Origin: Nanobdellota archaeon
GTDB taxonomy: Archaea > Nanobdellota > Nanobdellia > Parvarchaeales > Parvarchaeaceae
DNA: 64,000 bases
Assembly: GCA_021807085.1 (NCBI GenBank)
Contig: JAKAPM010000003.1
Location: forward strand, 2,014-66,013
Direction: 5' to 3'
Shown: one piece after another, positions 8,815 to 51,041 of the stretch
How positions within the stretch are numbered: position 1 is the first letter of the stretch
How the letters are laid out: the number at the start of each line of letters is the position of its first letter
Notes under the pieces: generated by a model
What the model saw: only the letters and a program-made list of their open reading frames with translations
Database searches by the model: none
What the model was told of the DNA's origin: nothing
Position numbers and translations under genes: made by a program

Positions 8815-9282
8815 TCAGAATTTAAGGTCTAATCCCGTCCAGTTCCTAACCTCGTCAGTTACCACGAAATCCTTTCTCAACGGGTGCCCTGGCCAATCTT
8901 CTGGCAGGAGTATCCTTCTCAGGTCAGGATGCTTGTTGAATTTTATGCCGAATAAGTCATACGCTTCCCTCTCTTCCCAGTTGGCGGAATCGAACACTTC
9001 AGTTAAGGTGTCTATGGAATAGTCCCTGTCTGTTATGTACGTCCTAATCACTATGGTGTCTGGTTTATCATATGACGAGAATACGTAGTTCAGTTCGAAT
9101 TTAGGTTTATAATCAGCAACCGCCAACATGAAAAGAACGTCAAAGTCCTGCCGGATTATCTCCGCCGCCGTTTTGAGTAGTTTTTTGTCCACCAACAGAA
9201 CGGAATATTCTGTGCCGTCAACCCCAAAGTCCTTTACTTTGTTTCCCAACACTCCCTTTAGTTTTTCAAAGTATTCTTTCAT
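8815..9282 (-). CDS. nuoC: NADH-quinone oxidoreductase subunit C (30 kDa subunit)
   Basis: 155 aa. NuoC signature region ([34 protein letters not shown]). Confidence 0.8.
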
Positions 9283-9805
9283 GATCCATCTGCGCCTTGC
9301 TCCTGTTCTCCTTTATTAGCTTCTGCAGCACCCTAACAGCGTCCATAAATTCCTCAGGCCTAGGCGGGCAGCCAGGGATAAAAACATCTACAGGCATTAT
9401 CTTGTCTATACCATGGATGGTGTTGTAACTATCGTGGTATAACCCACCACTTACATTGCACGCCCCAACGGCGATTACATACTTAGGGTCGGGCATCTGC
9501 TCGTATACATTGAGAAGTCTTCTAGCCATCTTTTTGGTTATGGTGCCACTTACTAGTATCATATCGGCCTGTCTAGGAGAATCCCCTATGAAAAGCACGC
9601 CCATCCTGTCTGAATCGACTTTGGTCGTTCCGAACGGCATCATCTCTATAGCACAGCAGGACGTGCCAAAGGTCAACGGCCACAAAGAGTTTCTCCTTCC
9701 CCAATTGAGTACATTTTCTATAAATTTTTCTGTTTTCATGAATATAATCTCCCCCATACCAGGATAGGAAAACTCATCTTTCTTCATTTCTTCGTCATTT
9801 TCCAT
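9266..9805 (-). CDS. nuoB: NADH-quinone oxidoreductase subunit B (20 kDa, N2 cluster subunit)
   Basis: 179 aa. Cys ligands of the NuoB/PSST family ([27 protein letters not shown]). Confidence 0.9.
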
Positions 9806-9813
9806 ATAGACGT

Positions 9814-10173
9814 TCAGTCCTTGCTGTAATCTCTTCTAGAGGCCGTCAGGTACCTGATAAGCAAAACAGCGAACACAAGACCTATCGAAACTCCGATAAA
9901 CGGCTGTAAGCCAAGAATTCTAGCGTTCTCGCCCCAAAGAAACAACAGGACAAAGAGCGCTTCTATAACGACAAAGATTATAGCGTATTGATAATACTGG
10001 AAACCAACGATTCTAGACGCAGTTAGTGACCTCTCAGCGCTCTCTATCGGTGCTCTGCCCATTCCTGCTGCCTTGGTTCTGGGGGATATGATGTGTTCGA
10101 TAGTTATCAGCAATATCCACGCGATAACGCTGCCTATTATCAGCAGCCCTGCGGCAACAAAATCACTCGCCAT
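9814..10173 (-). CDS. nuoA: NADH-quinone oxidoreductase subunit A
   Basis: 119 aa, three TM helices; first gene of the nuo operon, immediately upstream of nuoB. Confidence 0.7.
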   Translation of the reverse strand: MASDFVAAGLLIIGSVIAWILLITIEHIISPRTKAAGMGRAPIESAERSLTASRIVGFQYYQYAIIFVVIEALFVLLFLWGENARILGLQPFIGVSIGLVFAVLLIRYLTASRRDYSKD

Positions 10174-18422: not shown

Positions 18423-19082
18423 ATGGGCATAATATTCGATTTAGATGGCACACTTATCAACAGTCTGGGAGTCCACCGAGACTCGGTCAAGAGAGGGTTT
18501 GATACTGTATTAGGGAAGAACAGGGTGACAGCCAGTTTTGTCGCAGAAAATATAAGATACCCCTTCTCGATGCTTATCAAGAACTTGAGGAGAAATGGTA
18601 TCGAAATAACCGATAAAGATGCAATGTTGGTATTGTCGACTGCGGACAGATACATGACGCTGAAGAAGATATCGGAAGGCGTGAAGTTTTTCCGCGGAGC
18701 TAAGGAAGTTATATCGTTGATACGGTCGACGGGAATAAACTACTGTATAGCGACCTCAATGGATGACGCCGAGGTCAAAAATACAATCCGCGCACTCAGC
18801 CTGTCTTCTCTTGGAACCATGATAATAAATTCCAAGAATAGGAGGAGAGAAAAACCAGACCCTTACCTTCTGAACATAGCCATAAGGGAGACGGGTATGA
18901 ATAGGGCGCACACATGTTACATTGGTGACAGCAAATTCGATTTTTTGGCTGCAAGAAGAGCCAAGATAGGTTTTCTTGGTGTATTCAATAGGAGAGAACT
19001 GTCTGGTAAGGGACAGTTCTTCGGCAATCTCACCACCCTCAGAAAATATATAGAAAAGAACGCCGGCCTATTTTTTGACTGA
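18423..19082 (+). CDS. HAD-superfamily hydrolase (phosphatase, subfamily IA)
   Basis: 219 aa. Motif I IIFDLDGTL, motif II S/T (IATS), motif IV GDSKFD. Confidence 0.75.
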   Translation: MGIIFDLDGTLINSLGVHRDSVKRGFDTVLGKNRVTASFVAENIRYPFSMLIKNLRRNGIEITDKDAMLVLSTADRYMTLKKISEGVKFFRGAKEVISLIRSTGINYCIATSMDDAEVKNTIRALSLSSLGTMIINSKNRRREKPDPYLLNIAIRETGMNRAHTCYIGDSKFDFLAARRAKIGFLGVFNRRELSGKGQFFGNLTTLRKYIEKNAGLFFD

Positions 19083-20351
19083 ACTTCTGTCTCTGCTCTT
19101 CTTGCCGCCAGCTAGCCGTATATAATAGGACAGGGGGTTCTTTATCAATTTACAAGTCTCATTCGGAAAGCAGACATTGAAATATTTGTAATATCCTTGG
19201 GAATCGCAATTGGGCGGAGGAAAGGACTTGTTTGAGAAAGCGTAATCGATTTGTGACTTAATCAATCCTTCCTTCAAAGGTGGTTTGTTGAGGCTGTTCC
19301 AGTCCAACAGTATCTTCTCCACTTCCTGCCTGTTCTTTCCTATATTCCTTAGAAAGTTCACCATTATGAAGGTGCTTCTCTTCCTACCGTCGCTGAGGCC
19401 GCCCATTATCGTTTTTATGCACGGCGGAAGATACTTGGTGTCCAAAGGAAGATTTACTTTTTCAAATTCCTTCACTTCCTTTCTTACTTCCTGCTCCGGT
19501 TCGAACGAATCATATGCTCTGACAAAGAGGCTCGTAGCCTCTTCCTCTTTTGCATGCACATCGAAGAAATCAAGTCTGGTGTCGACGTTATCCGGCATTG
19601 CAGTTTCTGGGTCAAAATCTCCTACTTTATCTTTTTCTACGGGTATTGACACCAACCACTTTTTTTCGTTCAGCGAATACTGCATCCTGAACATATGTCT
19701 CTCTGATATTAGTACGGTATCTATATCTATCACACTGTAGGGGTTGAAAACACCCTTTTTGTAGAGGTCGTGTTCCGGTACTCGGACCTGTGAAAGTACT
19801 TTTTCGATGCCGTAATCTCTCTTTATGAAGTTTCTTATATTCTCCTCCAGTTCTTTTTTTAAGAATATGGAAACTATCATCGGTGCGCTGGGGAAAAGTT
19901 TATTTGTGTCTATACCATTGATTTTCTTGGGGAATGTCTCGTACGGTACCAGCACATGGAAGCCAGATCCACCACTGAATTTTACGGAGACGGTTCTTAT
20001 GCCCTCGTCTCCAAGCTTTTTTACAATCATTTCGGTGAACCGTTTTGATATGTCCAGTACCTTGCAGTCTACATCTATAAGTAGGTCCCAACCCTTTCTC
20101 AAGTCGTCCAACTCCTCTTTTTTCATGTCTTTGTTTATCAGAAGGGGGTTGTGCCACCGCTCCTCACTGACATGGAAGCTGGTGGCGCCGTTCCTGACAA
20201 GCGACTCCACGTCGCTCTTGTACTGAAAATACATTGGCCTTTTGCCGAAGTTTTCTCCGTATCTGGCGGCGCATTCCCTGTCTTTGACATTGACGAGCTT
20301 GGTAATTACTTCATCTTTCAGGTAGTATCTTAGGATATCGGAAGGTTTCAT
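19068..20351 (-). CDS. priS: DNA primase catalytic subunit PriS fused to a PriL-C-terminal-like 4Fe-4S domain
   Basis: 427 aa. PriS motifs DLLIDVD (catalytic DxD), SGGSGFHVLV and RHMFRMQYSLNEK within the first ~270 aa. C-terminal ~150 aa contains LPPCIKTIMGGL plus three more Cys (NCDSQ, NVCF, ETC), resembling the PriL-CTD Fe-S domain. Confidence 0.7.
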   Translation of the reverse strand: MKPSDILRYYLKDEVITKLVNVKDRECAARYGENFGKRPMYFQYKSDVESLVRNGATSFHVSEERWHNPLLINKDMKKEELDDLRKGWDLLIDVDCKVLDISKRFTEMIVKKLGDEGIRTVSVKFSGGSGFHVLVPYETFPKKINGIDTNKLFPSAPMIVSIFLKKELEENIRNFIKRDYGIEKVLSQVRVPEHDLYKKGVFNPYSVIDIDTVLISERHMFRMQYSLNEKKWLVSIPVEKDKVGDFDPETAMPDNVDTRLDFFDVHAKEEEATSLFVRAYDSFEPEQEVRKEVKEFEKVNLPLDTKYLPPCIKTIMGGLSDGRKRSTFIMVNFLRNIGKNRQEVEKILLDWNSLNKPPLKEGLIKSQIDYAFSNKSFPPPNCDSQGYYKYFNVCFPNETCKLIKNPLSYYIRLAGGKKSRDRSSVKK

Positions 20352-20407
20352 TTAATTGATAGTTGCCGCCGAGATATTAACTTTTTCTGATAGCTCCTGT
20401 AAAAAGC

Positions 20408-20415
20408 TTTAAAAA
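20408..20415 (+). promoter_or_regulatory. Candidate TATA box (tttaaaaa) ~26-33 nt upstream of the L1 ATG, implying a leaderless or near-leaderless transcript
   Basis: AT-rich octamer at the spacing expected for an archaeal TATA box relative to the start codon at 20441; purine-rich BRE-like stretch just upstream. Confidence 0.3.
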
Positions 20416-20440
20416 CAGATATGTTCTTTATATTTCAATT

Positions 20441-42820: not shown

Positions 42821-43530
42821 ACTATCCTCAGTATTGTCGCGTCTATGGGCATACCCGCCGCCAGCCCTCTTAGATATAGGTCTACGGCTACTATCAATAT
42901 CAGCCCAGCCCACGCAAGCAGCTCGTGATGTCTGTTTAGGTAGGACTGTCCCCTCCATACCGCGTTTTTCTTGTTACCCGCGAATTCGCAGCCGTAGCAG
43001 TCCGTTCTGCCACCAACCAGGTGCCTTATAGAGTGGCAGGACGCCAGCCAGAGGGTAAGCGCCACCACTTCTGCCGCCATCAACACACTTCCAAGTCTCA
43101 GAGTTAAACCACCTGCGTATGTTATGGAACCTACCATATCGTAGTAGAAGAAAGGAAGTATCGCTATGCCCGCGTACACAAAATACCTGTGTGCGTTCTC
43201 CAATCTGAAGAATTTCGTTTCGCCAGAGTAACTTCTGGTCTCAGAATCCCCCCTTGCAGAGGTGGTACAGTCCAAAGGGTGTTTGAAAAGATGCCTGTGG
43301 TAGTTCTTCCTGAATGCGTAACAGGTAAGCCTCAGCAAGCCCGCGACAGGCACTAACAGCACAGTTGGCGAATAGAAAGGATCTACATAACCGTCGAAAC
43401 TCTTGACTGGGAGCACTATAAGTGCGGACATGCTGGCTACTATAAGGATGACGAACGACCACAGCCTCCAGTTCGGCTCCAGTAGCTCCGAAGGTATAAT
43501 AGACCGTAGCAGGCTTTTATTCTCTTCCAT
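42817..43530 (-). CDS. Succinate dehydrogenase membrane anchor subunit (SdhC-like, His/Cys-rich)
   Basis: 237 aa, about 5 TM helices, several His and a DCYGCEF motif. Immediately downstream of sdhB with a 14-nt overlap. Confidence 0.45.
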   Translation of the reverse strand: MEENKSLLRSIIPSELLEPNWRLWSFVILIVASMSALIVLPVKSFDGYVDPFYSPTVLLVPVAGLLRLTCYAFRKNYHRHLFKHPLDCTTSARGDSETRSYSGETKFFRLENAHRYFVYAGIAILPFFYYDMVGSITYAGGLTLRLGSVLMAAEVVALTLWLASCHSIRHLVGGRTDCYGCEFAGNKKNAVWRGQSYLNRHHELLAWAGLILIVAVDLYLRGLAAGMPIDATILRIV

Positions 43531-44278
43531 CCCTTCCCATAATCTTCTTTATCTTCTTAACTGCCAGGAACAATGGGTCGTATCTACCGTCCACAACCCT
43601 CTCCTTCTCGGGTATTATCGCATTGTCGGTTATCCTTATACCTTCAGGGCATGTCTCCTGGCAGCACTTGGTTATGTTGCAATAGCCGAGTCCCATGTTC
43701 TTGTTGAGGGCGTACGACCTGTCTAATGCGTCGAGAGGGTGCATGTCTAGCGACGCCGCTTTTACTATAAACCATGGACCTACATAATCGGTGTCGTGCT
43801 CTCTTATCACATGGCATACATCCAGGCACAGGAAACATTCTATGCAGTTCCTGAACTCTCTTGAGCGAAGCACATCCATCTCTTCTATCCTCCAGGGTTC
43901 CTTGACGTTCTCTCTCGGTGTGAATGGCGGTATCTTTCTCGCGGTCACCCAGTTCGCGGATACGTCAGTCACCAGGTCTTTGACCAGTGGAAAGGCCCGC
44001 ATGGGAGCGACGTGTATCTTGTTGTCTTTTAGTGAATCCACCCGCGTCTTGCACATCAAGGACGGTTTACCATCTATTTCCGCGGCGCACGAGCCACATC
44101 TCGCAGCCTTGCAGTTCCATCTGACCGCCAGTGTCGGATCAAGGTTGTTCTCTATATAATGTACAGCGTCAAGGACTACCATCCCTTCCTTCACAGGTAC
44201 CTCGAAATCCTGGAATTTTCCCTCTTTATCTTTTGAAGGATCCTGCCTGTATACGCTTAGAATGACACTGTCAGTCAT
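43517..44278 (-). CDS. sdhB: Succinate dehydrogenase/fumarate reductase iron-sulfur subunit
   Basis: 253 aa. 2Fe-2S motif CKAARCGSCA; 4Fe-4S/3Fe-4S motifs CIECFLCLDVC and CCQETCP. Confidence 0.85.
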   Translation of the reverse strand: MTDSVILSVYRQDPSKDKEGKFQDFEVPVKEGMVVLDAVHYIENNLDPTLAVRWNCKAARCGSCAAEIDGKPSLMCKTRVDSLKDNKIHVAPMRAFPLVKDLVTDVSANWVTARKIPPFTPRENVKEPWRIEEMDVLRSREFRNCIECFLCLDVCHVIREHDTDYVGPWFIVKAASLDMHPLDALDRSYALNKNMGLGYCNITKCCQETCPEGIRITDNAIIPEKERVVDGRYDPLFLAVKKIKKIMGRDGRE

Positions 44279-45989
44279 ATCTTTCCTCCGGTAATGTCTC
44301 TAGTAAATACGATGGGATTTCCGGCGGTTGTGAAGTATACGATTCCAGTTTTTCACCGCTTTTCCTGAAAACAATGTTCTTCTTCCATTCCCTGCTCTTC
44401 TTTGGATAATCCAGTCTGAAATGAGCACCCCTACTCTCCTTTCTGAGCAAGGCACCCTTGACAATCAATTCTGCTATCGTCAGCATATTGTGCAATTCAA
44501 AGCACTGGAGGAGTCCTGGGTTGAAGTTCAATCCTCCTCCAACACCTACGTTTTTGTATTCCTTCTTTATCTCTTCTATCGTCGATAGGGCCTTCATCAA
44601 GCCTTTCTCTTCTCTTTCTATCCCAACATTCTCAGACATTGTTTTCCTGAGCTTTTCTGTTAAAGTATATGGGTTAGTTCCGTCTTTCTTGAGAAATGAT
44701 TTTATTCTGTCCGCTTCCCTTTCCACAGTTTCTTTCTGTATCTCCTGCAACTCGCTCTTTTTTGCGTATTCAGACACCCCTATACCTGCGTATTTGCCGA
44801 AAACTAAAAGATCGGCGAGAGAGTTGCCGCCTAGCCTGTTTGCTCCATGCACACCGGATGCGGCTTCTCCGACAGCGAACAGGCCGCCGACGCTAGATGA
44901 CGTAGTATCAGGATCTACCTTTATCCCTCCCATGAAATAGTGGGTTGTAGGAGCCACTTCCATTTTCTCCTTTGATATATCTATGCCGGCAAACTCTTTG
45001 AACTGCATGTACATACCAGGTAGTTTTTTCATTATGAAATCTTTTCCTTTGTATGAAATGTCGAGGTATACACCGCCGTGCCCGGTGCCTCTCCCTTCCT
45101 TTATTTCGTTGAATATCGCCCTTGCAACCACGTCCCTTGCGTCTAGTTCCTTTTTCTGCGGTGAATACCTCAGCATGAATCTCTCTCCCTTTGAATTGTA
45201 GAGGAAGCCTCCGTCCCCCCTAATGCTCTCAGTAACCAGCAGCCCCCTCACCCCAGGAGGCCATACCATACCAGTTGGATGGAACTGCATCATTTCCATA
45301 TCCATCATGTCAGCGCCCCCTTCGAATGCCAATGCCAATCCATCGCCGGTGCTCTCCCACGAATTTGAAGTAACTTCAAATATCCTTCCGCACCCTCCAG
45401 ATGCAATTAGCACGGCTTTGGATTCAAAAATCATTAGCTTACCAGTTCTCATGCTGAGCCCTATCGCACCAGTCACTTTCCCCCTGTTTTTCACCAGCTT
45501 AGTTATAAACACCTCGTCGTATACGTGCACGTTTTCGTTGTGCAGTATCTGGTCTTCAAGTGTTCTGAGTAATTCTAGTCCCGTTTTATCCCCCACATGG
45601 CACAGCCGTCTGTAAGTGTGCGCTCCGAAGGCGCGCTGCATTATTTTTTTCTCCGGAGTCCTGTCAAACAGTGCACCCATCCTCTCCAGTTCATACACTC
45701 TATCCGGTGCCTCCTTTGCTAATTTCTCCGCGAATCTCCAGTCTGATATGTACACCCCCTCAACCATCGTGTCTTTAAAGTGTATTTTCCAGTTGTCTTC
45801 TGGATCTACATCACCGAGTGCGGCTGCTATACCCCCTTCAGCCATCACGGTATGGGCTTTTCCGAGAAGCGACTTTGAGACTATAGTTACGCTGGCGTCG
45901 TGCCTTATAGCTTCGAGCGCGGCCCTCATACCAGAACCCCCCGCTCCCACTATCAATATATCAGTTTTTACAGTTTCCGTAGTGGTCAT
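44271..45989 (-). CDS. sdhA: Succinate dehydrogenase flavoprotein subunit
   Basis: 572 aa. FAD-binding DILIVGAGGSGMRAALEA, RSHTVMAEGG (FAD-His linkage), and the catalytic HPTG and RGDGG-like regions. Confidence 0.9.
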   Translation of the reverse strand: MTTTETVKTDILIVGAGGSGMRAALEAIRHDASVTIVSKSLLGKAHTVMAEGGIAAALGDVDPEDNWKIHFKDTMVEGVYISDWRFAEKLAKEAPDRVYELERMGALFDRTPEKKIMQRAFGAHTYRRLCHVGDKTGLELLRTLEDQILHNENVHVYDEVFITKLVKNRGKVTGAIGLSMRTGKLMIFESKAVLIASGGCGRIFEVTSNSWESTGDGLALAFEGGADMMDMEMMQFHPTGMVWPPGVRGLLVTESIRGDGGFLYNSKGERFMLRYSPQKKELDARDVVARAIFNEIKEGRGTGHGGVYLDISYKGKDFIMKKLPGMYMQFKEFAGIDISKEKMEVAPTTHYFMGGIKVDPDTTSSSVGGLFAVGEAASGVHGANRLGGNSLADLLVFGKYAGIGVSEYAKKSELQEIQKETVEREADRIKSFLKKDGTNPYTLTEKLRKTMSENVGIEREEKGLMKALSTIEEIKKEYKNVGVGGGLNFNPGLLQCFELHNMLTIAELIVKGALLRKESRGAHFRLDYPKKSREWKKNIVFRKSGEKLESYTSQPPEIPSYLLETLPEERYD

Positions 45990-45990
45990 G

Positions 45991-47139
45991 TCAGCGCCTC
46001 TGCTCGATTGGGATATACTCCAGGTCAGTCTTGCCTGTGTACTCTTCCAAGGGTCTGAACAGTTTATTATCCTTCCAGTATTCTATGACATGTGCGCACC
46101 ACCCAACGGTTCTGCTCGAGCTGAAAACTGTGTCGAACATCTCCGGCTTTATCCCCATGTGCATATACAGAGGGCCAGCAAAAAAATCGACGTTCGGCCA
46201 TATGCCGTGGCTTTTTCCCAACCGCTCTATCATTATCTTCTCCGCCGTCAGTGCTATCCTGACAAGCTTGTTTATGTCTTCTTCATCGTTACCGTCTATC
46301 TCGTCTAGGTATCTCTTGAGTATCTTCGCCCGTGGATCGTAAGCTTTGTATACCCTGTGTCCGAATCCCATTATCTTCTTTTTGCCTGCGAGTGCCTCGT
46401 CTATGTATTTCTCCGTGTTTGCAGGGTCGCCTATGCTCTCCATCATTCTGACAGCAGCTTCGTCTGCTCCTCCATGCAGTGGCCCCTTGAGAGTGGCTTC
46501 TCCAGCTACGACAGCGGAATATATATCTGCTAGCGTCGAACACGCCACTAGTGCGCCGAAAGTCGACGCGTTAGAGCTGTGTTCTGCGTGGAGTATAAAC
46601 ATAACATCAATCAGCTTTGTCTTTTCTCTATCCGGCTTGTTCCCAGTCAGCATATACAGGAAGTTTTCGGAATGGTCCAACGAGTTGTCTGGCTGTATAA
46701 TCTCTTTTCCTTTCTTTGTTCTGCCTATTGCGGCCGAAATCGTTGCGGTCTTTGCTATTATCCTTATTGCCTTCTCTATGTTGACACTTTCGTCTGCGCT
46801 GTATGGCTCCGGATCGTCGGCGGATATCGCCGACATGGCAGTTCTAAGAGTGTCCAGGACGTGGGCTTTAGCCGCCATATTTTTTATTATCTCCAGCACT
46901 TCTTTAGAGAGAGTACGCTCTCTTTTCAGTTTTTCCGAAAATTCTTCCAGCTCTTTTTTTTTCGGTAACTTGTTGTACAGTATCAAGTAACAAACTTCTT
47001 CGTACGTGGACTTTTCGGCCAGATCCTCTATGCAGTATCCCCTGTAGTAGAGCTTACCTTTCTCTCCATCAACCTTGCATATAGAGGATTTCTCTATGTA
47101 CACCCCTTCTAATCCAGAGTGTATCATGTTCCCACTCAT
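45991..47139 (-). CDS. gltA: Citrate synthase
   Basis: 382 aa. Signature GFGHRVYK and catalytic His/Asp regions (LHGGADE). Confidence 0.9.
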   Translation of the reverse strand: MSGNMIHSGLEGVYIEKSSICKVDGEKGKLYYRGYCIEDLAEKSTYEEVCYLILYNKLPKKKELEEFSEKLKRERTLSKEVLEIIKNMAAKAHVLDTLRTAMSAISADDPEPYSADESVNIEKAIRIIAKTATISAAIGRTKKGKEIIQPDNSLDHSENFLYMLTGNKPDREKTKLIDVMFILHAEHSSNASTFGALVACSTLADIYSAVVAGEATLKGPLHGGADEAAVRMMESIGDPANTEKYIDEALAGKKKIMGFGHRVYKAYDPRAKILKRYLDEIDGNDEEDINKLVRIALTAEKIMIERLGKSHGIWPNVDFFAGPLYMHMGIKPEMFDTVFSSSRTVGWCAHVIEYWKDNKLFRPLEEYTGKTDLEYIPIEQRR

Positions 47140-47143
47140 TTAC

Positions 47144-49198
47144 TTACACCTCTAACGATTTCAACAAAAGTTCTATGTCTGTAGTGGACTTACCTTCTTT
47201 GTCAGAAATGTTGAGAGTGAGGGGTGGTTTTATGCCTCTGGCGGAGAGCCGGCTCTCGAAAACATCAGGATCTTCGCATTGGTAGAAGATCCCTGTATGC
47301 ATATTATCCGGATTCTCGCTGAGCAACATCTTAAGCGCTCCTAGCTTCTTATCGTCTACCTCATTCTTATCCGATGGGTTCTTAACCATACCATCATATT
47401 CCTGCGGCAGCGGTTTGAGGTGCTGGTTGAACCACGCGGCGGACGTGAATTCCGGGTTATAAGTAGGACATCCCTGCATTATGTCGACCAGAGCAAGGCC
47501 TTTGTGCTTTATCGCCGCTATCATAACATCTGACATCTCTTTCACCTTGAAGCTCTGCGTCCTCGCAACGAAAGTGTAACCCGCCATTATCGCTAGCGAC
47601 AGGGGATTAAGTGCACCATTTATGTTCGGAGCGGGGAGGGATTTGGTTTTTCTCCCTTCTGGTAGCGTTGGACTTGCCTGGCCTTTCGTGAGCGAGTAAA
47701 CGCCGTTATCGTGCACGAACAATTTTATGTCAACGTTCCTTCTGCCAGCGCTTATGAAATGCCCGACACCTATACCATACGTGTCACCGTCACCACTGTC
47801 TATGAGCACATTTAGATCTGGATTTGCGAGTTTTATCCCCTCTGCAAACGGTATAGCTCTTCCGTGGAGAGTGTGCACGCCGTTGACATTAACAAGATGA
47901 GGCAGCTTGGAGGAACATCCTATCCCGGAAACTATTACTGTCTTGTTGGGATCCAGTCCGGCTTCCACTATCGCGGTCTTAACACCGAGGACTATCCCCG
48001 AGTCACCGCAGTTATGCAGCGTCGCTGAATTGCTTACATAAGAATTTACATCCTCAACTTCGAAGTTGTAAACCGGACCGTTGTAATAGAAACTGTCCAA
48101 GCTTCTTATCCTGAGGTACAAATAACTATCATCTCGGAATGACATAAAGTGCGCTGCATCGGAAATTTTTGCTTCTTCCGATTTTATCCCAAATAATTTT
48201 ATAAGTCCATTGTAGTGGCTGTTTTTTACTTCGATAGAATAAGACTCTTTGTGGATCCCATAAGATTTATTTTTGTATACATACGGAACTATGGACTGCC
48301 TTAGTAAGAGCATCTTTATCTGCTCTTTTAGAACAGGTGAAATTGTCTTGTATCCCGTCCTCAATTTTTGAGTATTGATGAATCCATCACCTCTCCACAA
48401 TCCTACTAGTAGGTGTATCTGCTTTTTCGGGGGCAGCAGCACAAGATTGTGCGGAATTCTTTTCTCCGCAGCGCAGTCACCGAACCATTCCAAAAATATC
48501 TCTGATAGATATGATGAACTTACATGCACTTCTATAGAGCCTTTTTTTGCCGATCTGTCCTTTATAGTAGCAGCCAATCCGAATACTTTGGAGAAAAGTT
48601 TCTTCGCATCTTCAGCGAGTTCTTGTTCAGTTTTTCCAAACGTTAGTACTATCTCTCTTTCATGTACATTTCCTTCTGCTATGTAATAGCCTGCCAGTTT
48701 AAGAAAATCGCTGTCAACCTTTATTTCTGCGGGCAGCGATTTGCTTCGTGTATCCTTCTTTTTCTTTTTGTATGCTATCGAAAGTGTATCGATGTCTATT
48801 TCGGCCTTCATCACAGGGTAAGCGACATAGTCCCCAACGTTTAACTTCTCGGCTTCGACCCATTCTGTTTTGATAGAGCCTCTAGCAACGTTCTCTTTTC
48901 TTACAATCAGCGCTGGGTGTTCATTCGTTAGAGTAGTCTCACCGAAGTAGGCAGTATTAAGTCGGTATATCCTTCCTTTGTGTATATGAGTCATGACTTC
49001 GTCTATTCTGTGAAAGTACCCATCGCTTCCAAGAACTTTATCTCCTACTTTAAACGCCTGTATCGCTTTTGCCGAAGGATTTCCTATTATTATATTGTCG
49101 GGGAGCAGGCAGCCAGGACACCAGTCGTTGAATTCGTTCGATGTGAGACTGGACACTGTCGTCTGTTTTTTCAACCGGTCATCGCTTTCAGTAGGCAT
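47144..49198 (-). CDS. korB: 2-oxoacid:ferredoxin oxidoreductase beta subunit (KorB/OorB, TPP-binding) interrupted by an in-frame intein
   Basis: 684 aa precursor. Exteins (29 + 288 aa) rejoin to WCPG/CGDSGIVLG..., the canonical KorB N-terminal CPGCG motif. Also GDGDTYGIG (TPP-binding GDG) and GCPTYNPE. The intein occupies residues 30-396. Confidence 0.85.
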   Translation of the reverse strand: MPTESDDRLKKQTTVSSLTSNEFNDWCPGCLLPDNIIIGNPSAKAIQAFKVGDKVLGSDGYFHRIDEVMTHIHKGRIYRLNTAYFGETTLTNEHPALIVRKENVARGSIKTEWVEAEKLNVGDYVAYPVMKAEIDIDTLSIAYKKKKKDTRSKSLPAEIKVDSDFLKLAGYYIAEGNVHEREIVLTFGKTEQELAEDAKKLFSKVFGLAATIKDRSAKKGSIEVHVSSSYLSEIFLEWFGDCAAEKRIPHNLVLLPPKKQIHLLVGLWRGDGFINTQKLRTGYKTISPVLKEQIKMLLLRQSIVPYVYKNKSYGIHKESYSIEVKNSHYNGLIKLFGIKSEEAKISDAAHFMSFRDDSYLYLRIRSLDSFYYNGPVYNFEVEDVNSYVSNSATLHNCGDSGIVLGVKTAIVEAGLDPNKTVIVSGIGCSSKLPHLVNVNGVHTLHGRAIPFAEGIKLANPDLNVLIDSGDGDTYGIGVGHFISAGRRNVDIKLFVHDNGVYSLTKGQASPTLPEGRKTKSLPAPNINGALNPLSLAIMAGYTFVARTQSFKVKEMSDVMIAAIKHKGLALVDIMQGCPTYNPEFTSAAWFNQHLKPLPQEYDGMVKNPSDKNEVDDKKLGALKMLLSENPDNMHTGIFYQCEDPDVFESRLSARGIKPPLTLNISDKEGKSTTDIELLLKSLEV
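48011..49111 (-). mobile_element. Full-length intein with LAGLIDADG homing-endonuclease domain inside korB
   Basis: 367 aa. Block A CLLPDNIIIG (Cys1); block B LTNEHPAL (TxxH); LAGLIDADG motifs LKLAGYYIAEGNV and LLVGLWRGDGFI; block F/G VYNFEVEDVNSYVSNSATLHN, then the +1 Cys of the extein CGDSG. Codon boundaries were checked by reverse complement: residues 396/397 = N/C at 48013-48008. Confidence 0.85.
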
Positions 49199-51041
49199 TT
49201 AGTATCACCTTATGTTCTCCCTTCTTTATCTTGTCTATAGCGTCGGATACCTCGTCGTATCTTATCAATCTTCCGTTGTACTTTAGTATCTCGTTGGGTA
49301 TCACGAATCCGCTCTCTGATGCGATGTGTTGTTTTAGCTGTGCAGATATGTTCTCTTCTAGGATGACCGTGTTTTTTGCTTTTCTCAAGATATCCGGAAC
49401 TTCTTTCGGCAGCGGATGTATCAGTTTTATCTGGAGTATCGCAACGTTATCTTTGCCATTAATGGCGTCTATAGCCGCGGCGGAAGGGCTACCCCACGTG
49501 ACAAGTAGCAAATCAGCTCCGTCCGTATCGCCGATGATTCTGAATTTTTCTTCTGGTTTTAGTTCGCTGAGTATCTTGTCGTATTTCCCGTTTCTTTTCT
49601 GCATCATCTTTATTCTGTTGTTGGGCTCTTCAGATACATGTCCCCACTCGTCGTGTTCGTCTCCGGTCATCCAGAAAATTGCGTCTGGGTTGCCTGGAAT
49701 TATCCTTGGGGATATATTATCATCTGTAAATTCGAACCTCTTGTAAGAACCGTCCGTTTTGTATATGAGTTTTCCCCTATCGACTCTGTATCTATCCTTT
49801 ATGTCGAGTATTGTCTTCTTGTCCATATTCATGGAGCCTTGCGATATCGCTTTCTCGCCAAGCACAATTACTGGCAACTGATACTTCTCCGCGTAGTTGA
49901 ACGCATTTGCAGTCATCTCTATCGATTCTTCGACGTCTCCAGGCGCTATTATCATCCTACCGAAGTCGCCGTGTCCTTGGTGTACAGCAAACATCAGATC
50001 GCTCTGTTCCGTTCTGGTCGGCTGCCCTGTAGCCGGTGCACCTCTCTGGTGGTCGACAAGCACCACGGGCACCTCGTTCATTCCCGCCCACGTGACTGTT
50101 TCTGCCATCAACGACATGCCTGGTCCCGACGTTGAGCTGGACGCCCTGACTCCAGCTATGCTTGCACCAACCGTCATTGCGAAGACCGCTAGTTCACTCT
50201 CCGGCTGTATCACCCTTATCCCTAGCTCCGGATGCGATTCTATGAATACACTCTCGTCACTGGCCGGTGTTATCGGATAGTATATTTGCATTTTGCACCC
50301 AGCTATGGCCTTCCCTATGGCTGTAGACGTGAAACCCTCCATGTATATCTGTGATTCTTTGCCGGACTTCTCAAGATTCAGGGCCGGCTGCAGACCCCTC
50401 GACTTTATGTGGTTTATCGTCTCGTTCACAACAGCTTCGTTCCTGCCCTTTAAGTAGTCGATGGTGCCCTCTGAAACCGATATGTCCAAATCTATTACGC
50501 TCTTCGGTTTTTTCGCGAACTCGCTTATTATTGCGTCGGCTATCGTGCTTTCATCAAATCCCAAAAGATACGCAGAGGCGGATACGCAGACTATATTCTT
50601 GGCTATCATCACCTCGCTTGTAGGTTTGTCGAATTTCTTCGCGACTTTGCTTATTATAGAATCGAAATCTATGTCCAGGATGGTTATGTCCTTTCTGTCT
50701 ATCCTGCTCTTGTCTACCTTGCTGTCGATTATCAATACGCCCCCCTCCTTTACGTCCCTGACATGGCCTTCATGGACTGTATCGCCTCTTTCGTTCTTCT
50801 CCCCCAGCACCGATTCGCTGTCGGAAAATATTGCCATGTCCACTCTGCTTGGTATGGAAGCTATCTTATTTTCTGAGACTCTGACGGTAAAGAAACTGTG
50901 CATACCCTTTATGTTGGAGAAATATTCCCTGTAGCCGTATATGTTGTAGCCGAACTTCATCATCACTCTTGAGAAAAGGCCGAGAGCTGCGTCGATGCCG
51001 CTACCTTGTTTTCCCCCCGTCATCCAAGTGAGCTCTACCAT
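49188..51041 (-). CDS. korA: 2-oxoacid:ferredoxin oxidoreductase alpha subunit (fused gamma-alpha type)
   Basis: 617 aa, the size and domain order of the Sulfolobus/Thermoplasma-type two-subunit 2-oxoacid:ferredoxin oxidoreductase alpha. Overlaps korB by 11 nt. Confidence 0.8.
   Translation of the reverse strand: MVELTWMTGGKQGSGIDAALGLFSRVMMKFGYNIYGYREYFSNIKGMHSFFTVRVSENKIASIPSRVDMAIFSDSESVLGEKNERGDTVHEGHVRDVKEGGVLIIDSKVDKSRIDRKDITILDIDFDSIISKVAKKFDKPTSEVMIAKNIVCVSASAYLLGFDESTIADAIISEFAKKPKSVIDLDISVSEGTIDYLKGRNEAVVNETINHIKSRGLQPALNLEKSGKESQIYMEGFTSTAIGKAIAGCKMQIYYPITPASDESVFIESHPELGIRVIQPESELAVFAMTVGASIAGVRASSSTSGPGMSLMAETVTWAGMNEVPVVLVDHQRGAPATGQPTRTEQSDLMFAVHQGHGDFGRMIIAPGDVEESIEMTANAFNYAEKYQLPVIVLGEKAISQGSMNMDKKTILDIKDRYRVDRGKLIYKTDGSYKRFEFTDDNISPRIIPGNPDAIFWMTGDEHDEWGHVSEEPNNRIKMMQKRNGKYDKILSELKPEEKFRIIGDTDGADLLLVTWGSPSAAAIDAINGKDNVAILQIKLIHPLPKEVPDILRKAKNTVILEENISAQLKQHIASESGFVIPNEILKYNGRLIRYDEVSDAIDKIKKGEHKVILNAY

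Follow-up and report, generated by a model that had tools for sequence, protein, structure and literature searches.

In heterodimeric primases, the N-terminal domain of PriL docks PriL onto PriS. Here, we describe a gene that unites a PriS-type and a PriL-type domain in one polypeptide, found in a stretch of 64,000 nt (positions 2,014 to 66,013 of contig JAKAPM010000003.1, from an archaeon filed under Nanobdellota); this whole stretch is called the window, and all coordinates refer to it. The closest described enzyme is NEQ395 (AAR39242.1) of Nanoarchaeum equitans, a brown, monomeric, Fe–S-containing active primase and the only archaeo-eukaryotic primase (AEP) found in that genome (Schneider, Bergsch and Lipps 2023; PMC10250227). 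NEQ395 primes at triplets whose middle base is T, such as ATA, and its RNA primers are ~9 nt long. Catalysis requires H58 (which binds the elongating nucleotide; H58A/Y is inactive), D87/D89, S119, H125, D194, H202, and R205, while R301, R303, and F306 are required in initiation and dispensable in extension. Mutation of one Cys removes the cluster but not the activity (two Cys-to-Ala mutants exceed the wild type), catalysis in vitro does not need the cluster, the domains do not complement each other in trans, and primer length is set by the length of the linker (PMC10250227).

The fusion of a PriS catalytic and a PriL Fe–S domain in N. equitans is credited to Iyer et al. 2005 by Raymann et al. 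2014 (PMC3914693). That study records the fused primase in ARMAN-5/Parvarchaeota, a classic two-subunit primase in ARMAN-2 (Micrarchaeota), and, in Candidatus Nanosalina J07AB43, the same short primase split over two adjacent genes. The fused form occurs throughout DPANN cluster 2 (PMC7414124). For Dombrowski et al., the fusion is a synapomorphy, inherited vertically in their tree from the base of Undinarchaeota and DPANN cluster 2. In the literature, neither N. equitans nor DPANN cluster 2 has separate canonical priS and priL genes. The architecture, its phylogenetic spread (including Parvarchaeota), and its biochemistry are already published, and the first-pass annotation, made from the sequence alone, rightly called the single-chain form known from Nanoarchaeota and other DPANN archaea.

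The gene in the window is a further species-level member of the known Parvarchaeota fused-primase family, and nothing substantial differs. Its product is very probably (roughly 0.9) the replicative DNA primase of the cell, of the compact, monomeric kind that characterizes DPANN cluster 2. Four lines of observation bear on this: the domain folds, the invariant residues, the distribution of the family, and the chromosomal housekeeping setting. The gene and its main parts are the following.

19068..20351, minus strand: complete gene of the predicted monomeric PriS-PriL(CTD) primase (CTD, C-terminal domain), an ATG-to-stop open reading frame (ORF) of 427 amino acids plus stop
19596..20351, minus strand: AEP/PriS catalytic domain, residues 1–252 (PF01896, AlphaFold, Foldseek)
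19446..19595, minus strand: inter-domain linker, residues 253–302, with a conserved helix at 273–282 (EAxxLxxxAxD) and a flexible segment at 286–295
19098..19445, minus strand: predicted PriL C-terminal (4Fe–4S) domain, residues 303–418

The catalytic half

Conservation was read from an alignment (A1) of 26 homologs with 40%–80% identity to the query. In the catalytic half, H60, D89, D93, D95, S126, G127, H132, D211, R218, H219, R222, E229, and K230 are invariant. All elements of the AEP signature (hhhDhD, sxH, hD, and the nucleotide-binding His/Arg) are represented in this set, with D93, D95, S126, H132, D211, H219, R222, and H60. The motifs lie as follows.

20172..20183, minus strand: TSFH motif, with H60, whose position would match H58 of NEQ395 (elongating nucleotide) by motif and spacing
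20067..20087, minus strand: AEP motif I, DLLIDVD, residues 89–95, with three invariant Asp (D89, D93, D95)
19956..19976, minus strand: AEP motif II, SGGSGFH (sxH), residues 126–132, with invariant S126, G127, and H132
19662..19721, minus strand: AEP motif III region, DTVLISERHMFRMQYSLNEK, with invariant D211, R218, H219, R222, E229, and K230

The first-pass annotation had recognized PriS in this ORF from DLLIDVD, SGGSGFH, and RHMFRMQYSLNEK; all three motifs are present, the last at residues 218–230. From the sequence, D93 and D95 are the presumed metal-binding hhhDhD pair; by analogy, D211 would be the third acidic residue, and R218, H219, and R222 would bind the nucleotide. The catalytic residues H58, D87/D89, S119, H125, D194, H202, and R205 of NEQ395 would correspond to H60, D93/D95, S126, H132, D211, H219, and R222, a mapping drawn from motif and spacing and not from a direct alignment.

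Against profile collections, the catalytic half behaves as a very divergent PriS domain. PF01896 (PriS) matches residues 97–238 (E = 1.6e-4) with 22.5 bits, slightly below its cutoff of 26.8, and is matched by 21 of the 26 aligned family members. Of the two Pfam comparisons that the first-pass annotation proposed as a check, that with PriS stays under its cutoff, and that with PriL passes (see below). The canonical PriS models TIGR00335 and NF001641 give 14.2 bits (vs. 143.5) and 14.5 bits (vs. 326), and PF21686 (LigD Prim-Pol) reaches 15.8 bits against a gathering cutoff of 27.4. Since the sequence lies under the cutoffs of the PriS models and the named records of relatives are mostly annotated "hypothetical protein," automatic annotation overlooks what is probably the only recognizable replicative primase of the cell. 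The chain contains six Cys, four of them within the C-terminal 120 amino acids. No candidate for the PriS zinc motif was found in the N-terminal half, which holds just C27 and C96, both outside conserved columns; in the alignment and the model, motifs I and II are separated by one helix, which has no conserved Cys/His cluster.

The PriL-type C-terminal half and the linker

PF04104 (PriL) matches residues 277–383 with 26.4 bits, above its cutoff of 22.4, and is matched by 25 of the 26 aligned family members. The NCBIfam PriL equivalogs are hit at E ~1e-9 with only 23–38 bits versus cutoffs of 339–479. The four NF00258x/NF00259x models (the PriL set has 348–406 positions) align only from model position 207–224 onward, and the best stretch in NF003051 covers positions 355–390 of 406. 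None of NF002588, NF002589, and NF003051, which include the N-terminal helical domain, recognizes a canonical full-length PriL here. Because these matches are confined mostly to the end of the models, the primase has the C-terminal domain of PriL but lacks the N-terminal one. A profile built from family relatives retrieves P. abyssi PriL (9f26_B) at E = 2e-9, with the cysteines of PPC, PPNCD, xCxPD, and xCK all aligned. Homology of residues ~280–427 to the PriL-CTD, which the first-pass annotation had suspected from the motif LPPCIKTIMGG and the cysteines of NCDSQ, NVCF, and ETC, is thereby detected, and these residues are all present at the following positions.

19419..19421, minus strand: C311 (in PPC; motif LPPCIKTIMGG, 308–318), putative Fe–S ligand 1; invariant, aligned with the PPC Cys of P. 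abyssi PriL
19368..19385, minus strand: RKRSTF (R323, R325, F328); K324, R325, and F328 invariant, 323 either R or K; probable counterparts of NEQ395 R301/R303/F306 by spacing to the PPC Cys
19206..19208, minus strand: C382 (in PPNCD; NCDSQ), putative Fe–S ligand 2; invariant, aligned with PPNCD of 9f26_B
19170..19172, minus strand: C394 (in NVCF), putative Fe–S ligand 3; kept in at least 90%, aligned with LCTPD of 9f26_B
19152..19154, minus strand: C400 (in ETCK), putative Fe–S ligand 4; invariant, aligned with HCK of 9f26_B

In this half, P309-P310-C311, D321, G322, K324, R325, F328, C382, and C400 are invariant. The C-terminal domain has the four Cys able to ligate a 4Fe–4S cluster, and their conservation down to 40% identity exceeds chance by far. 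The R-x-R...F element follows the first Cys; its role in initiation would be that deduced from the NEQ395 mutants. The pattern of invariance over both halves fits, as judged from the alignment, a working enzyme that carries a Cys4 metal cluster and not a decaying or chance fusion. C289, R301, R303, F306, C364, C376, and C384 of NEQ395 would correspond to C311, R323, R325, F328, C382, C394, and C400. Spacing within motifs is identical between the two enzymes except for the last two Cys, which form C-x5-C in the window primase (as in P. abyssi PriL) and C-x7-C by the numbering of NEQ395. At residue 397 (19161..19163), the window primase has Asn (FPNETC), where the consensus xPDxxC shows a near-invariant Asp between Fe–S ligands 3 and 4.

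The window primase is longer than NEQ395 (427 vs. 393 amino acids), and its linker differs: The model has a short helix (273–282) followed by a disordered segment, compared with one long helix of 30 residues in NEQ395. Linker length varies across the alignment. In two members, P0039 (53% identity) and P0040 (50%), the linker carries an insertion of ~45–65 amino acids (columns ~323–390 of A1), which matches no Pfam family and resembles a helix-hairpin-helix segment (e.g., LLNIKDDLIRLGIYSLEELAAFD). Since primer length is governed by the linker in NEQ395, these variants might make different primers.

Predicted structure and comparison with other AEP enzymes

From the alignment, AlphaFold2 gives a model with a mean predicted local distance difference test score (pLDDT) of 87.6 and two confident domains. 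In the catalytic domain, pLDDT is mostly >90; in the linker, it falls below 50 at residues 286–295. In Foldseek searches against the PDB, the N-terminal domain finds AEP catalytic folds with probability 1.00 (M. smegmatis Prim-PolC, human Pri1, and PriS of P. furiosus and P. abyssi, at E = 7e-8 to 5e-6, and LigD polymerase domains). The full-length model returned AEP catalytic chains only and no PriL match; for this reason, the C-terminal 132 amino acids were modeled separately (pLDDT 85). That model gives weak matches only, among which PriX and the PriL-CTD rank first. Matches in Pfam, NCBIfam, and fold space to the two halves agree on a PriS and a PriL-CTD in one chain.

With NEQ395, the window primase shares the single chain, the N-terminal AEP/PriS domain, the linker, and the four-Cys PriL-CTD; the sources are distinct, a Parvarchaeota-type organism of acid mine drainage type habitats as against a marine hyperthermophilic symbiont. 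With the heterodimeric enzymes (P. abyssi 9f26/9f28, P. furiosus 1g71, S. solfataricus 1zt2/5of3, human 4rr2), it shares the AEP fold, motifs I–III, the PriL-CTD fold, and the four-Cys pattern, but it is one polypeptide, without the PriL N-terminal domain, a candidate for the PriS zinc motif, or PriX. PolpTN2, from plasmid pTN2 of Thermococcus nautilus (PMC3973330), is also a single chain with a PriS-like part and a PriL-like C-terminal domain; it is, however, a plasmid-borne, independent fusion whose sequence does not resemble those of the DPANN primases (Raymann 2014). In pRN1 ORF904, RSF1010 RepB', and the enzyme of phage NrS-1, an AEP is likewise joined to a helical domain, which binds the initiating nucleotide.

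The affinity with Prim-PolC raises another reading, in which the protein would not be a primase but mainly a LigD/Prim-PolC-type polymerase for nonhomologous end joining or gap-filling repair. Searched as a whole, the model has its top matches in M. smegmatis Prim-PolC (E = 7e-8) and in the polymerase domains of LigD, and PF21686 is weakly matched both by the query (E = 0.011) and by 10 of the 26 family members. Yet, the PriL-CTD is present with its initiation residues conserved, and LigD-type polymerases are not known to have a PriL-CTD. A main function in repair is improbable. A secondary role in repair is possible. Archaeal replicative primases can serve in double-strand-break repair according to PMC12019639.

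Proposed mode of action

For the replicative primase favored here, monomeric action, RNA primers of ~9 nt, Fe–S loading, and the roles of individual residues would follow the biochemistry of NEQ395. The AEP domain would form phosphodiester bonds with two metal ions on D93/D95/D211, the incoming NTP being held by H60, S126, H132, H219, and R222. A 4Fe–4S cluster on C311/C382/C394/C400 would hold the PriL-type helical domain together, and the helix with R-K-R...F (R323/R325/F328) would provide the site for the initiating nucleotide and the 5′ end of the primer. The CTD may swing on the flexible linker, first for dinucleotide formation and then for limiting primer length. The covalent tether would substitute for the missing PriL N-terminal domain: With the two domains linked in one chain, that docking domain could be absent. 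A Parvarchaeota-type member could stand beside the hyperthermophilic NEQ395 as a second minimal system for studying the role of the PriL-CTD and its Fe–S cluster in primer initiation.

Distribution and host lineage

In the protein database, 1,673 relatives were found at E ≤ 1e-3. The 120 listed are mostly full-length (~420–480 amino acids), and full-length homologs of ~420–440 amino acids have E values down to 1e-236. Homology to the fused primases of Nanoarchaeota, Woesearchaeota, and Parvarchaeota extends over 95%–100% of the query (E = 1e-100 to 1e-236). The closest named relatives are proteins of metagenome-assembled genomes from Candidatus Parvarchaeota and Acidifodinimicrobium (59%–66% identity); those of Woesearchaeota, Nanoarchaeota, and Nanoarchaeia are at ~40%–45%. 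Identity peaks at 79% among the matches listed and at 66%–67% among the GTDB species representatives.

In a collection with one genome per species, at least 591 loci encode a relative (tblastn), of which 80 were kept for inspection of labels and gene order. Most of the 80 have DPANN names; roughly a dozen carry the title "uncultured Methanosarcinales archaeon" (L025, L029, L039, L041, L042, L044, L048, L062, and others, from binchicken, SRP co-assemblies); these titles are probably a taxonomic mislabel and not a fused primase in Methanosarcinales.

The fused primase is a reliable single-gene marker that places a contig in Undinarchaeota and DPANN cluster 2. Together with the genes for the tricarboxylic acid (TCA) cycle, 2-oxoacid:ferredoxin oxidoreductase (OFOR), and complex I, it indicates Ca. 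Parvarchaeum, a use for placement that the first-pass annotation had seen in this combination. The host is Parvarchaeum-like, of acid mine drainage type communities. The value as a discovery is small; what remains lies in annotation and taxonomic placement.

Genomic neighborhood

The window also encodes SufBCD, a HAD hydrolase, L1-P0-P1, SurE, and an ATP-dependent DNA ligase. The HAD hydrolase gene (plus strand, 18423..19082) and the primase gene converge, and their 3′ ends overlap by 15 nt (19068..19082). This agrees with the description of related thermophilic lineages, whose genomes are very compact and contain many genes that overlap (PMC10134863). On the other side, the primase gene diverges from L1.

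20352..20440: AT-rich intergenic spacer of 89 bp between the divergent primase and L1 genes (sequence read)

The spacer is presumably the site of promoters for both genes, with TATA-like A/T-rich stretches (TTTAAAAA, TTTATAT, and, on the minus strand, TTAATAT) ~10–35 nt off both ATGs. Upstream of L1-P0-P1 (20441..22232), in place of an L11 gene, sits the primase, in divergent orientation as first noted, and no Ribosomal_L11 appears in the precomputed annotations of the window between 9,068 and 52,478. A search of the 64-kb window with the family hidden Markov model at maximum sensitivity gave no second PriS- or PriL-like ORF (nothing below E = 0.7), in accord with the earlier statement that the window has no separate priL.

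Gene order is kept among close relatives. The adjacency to L1-P0-P1 is conserved in L005–L008 and L012, with primases ~65% identical, and the HAD–Suf side additionally in L010, L011, and L014; neither is present in ~70 more distant loci. In L012, ~1.7 kb separate L1 from the primase. A conserved link between replication and translation through L1-P0-P1 was considered and rejected, as the adjacency is limited to L005–L008 and L012 and absent from the ~70 distant loci. The gene order is lineage-specific, without functional signal.

That the gene encodes, in place of the chromosomal replicative enzyme, a primase-polymerase of an integrated plasmid or virus (of the kind of PolpTN2, pRN1 ORF904, or RepB') is even less likely than a repair polymerase. 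By tblastn, relatives are absent from 50,697 phage records and 72,556 plasmid records. The flanks consist of Suf, HAD, ribosomal protein, and SurE genes, with no integrase or mobile-element family in the precomputed Pfam calls; the order is maintained in several related species, and the GC content of the gene is similar to that of its surroundings. In addition, the published tree has the fusion vertically inherited from the base of Undinarchaeota and DPANN cluster 2, and the C-terminal domain is a true four-Cys PriL-CTD and no generic helix bundle.

An artefactual fusion, in which faulty sequencing, faulty assembly, or read-through in gene calling would have merged a priS with a short priL next to it (the two adjacent genes of Ca. 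Nanosalina J07AB43 offer a precedent for the split state), can be dismissed almost entirely, since the exact 427-amino-acid protein is encoded on seven contigs (the four places displayed come from four samples, with identical neighbors wherever the contigs reach far enough), nearly all matches among the 120 homologs and 80 loci are continuous over both domains, and the linker has a conserved helix and no stop codon or frameshift.

Accepting the replicative primase, one may ask about its cluster. By analogy with the NEQ395 Cys mutants, the 4Fe–4S cluster could conceivably sense redox state or oxygen and hold priming back in respiring, oxygen-exposed cells of the Parvarchaeum type, and the gene order primase–HAD–SufD–SufB (kept within this taxonomic order) might in that case be a sign of coupling to Fe–S supply. 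We regard such a switch as very unlikely. The Suf genes converge on the primase gene and share no operon with it, and the synteny extends to close relatives only.

Metabolic genes are found farther away, with nuoA/B/C-like genes at ~9266..10173 (minus strand) and citrate synthase, SdhA/SdhB, and OFOR alpha/beta within 43517..51041 (minus strand). These match the published metabolism of Parvarchaeum, in which a TCA cycle and an electron transport chain occur together with a complex I that has no nuoEFG (PMC5864196; the metabolic genes are also treated in PMC10134863). As respiratory and TCA traits are published for Parvarchaeum, this context is expected of the lineage and not surprising.

The OFOR beta subunit (47144..49198, minus strand) has 684 amino acids, with TPP_enzyme_C at 426–573 and PFO_beta_C at 577–652. 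Its length is due to an intein, seen with LAGLIDADG_3 (E = 8.6e-14, best at 167–239) and Intein_splicing (E = 3.6e-8 over 64–396, slightly below the Pfam cutoff). Inteins are more frequent in replication proteins, and one inside an enzyme of central metabolism seems unusual.

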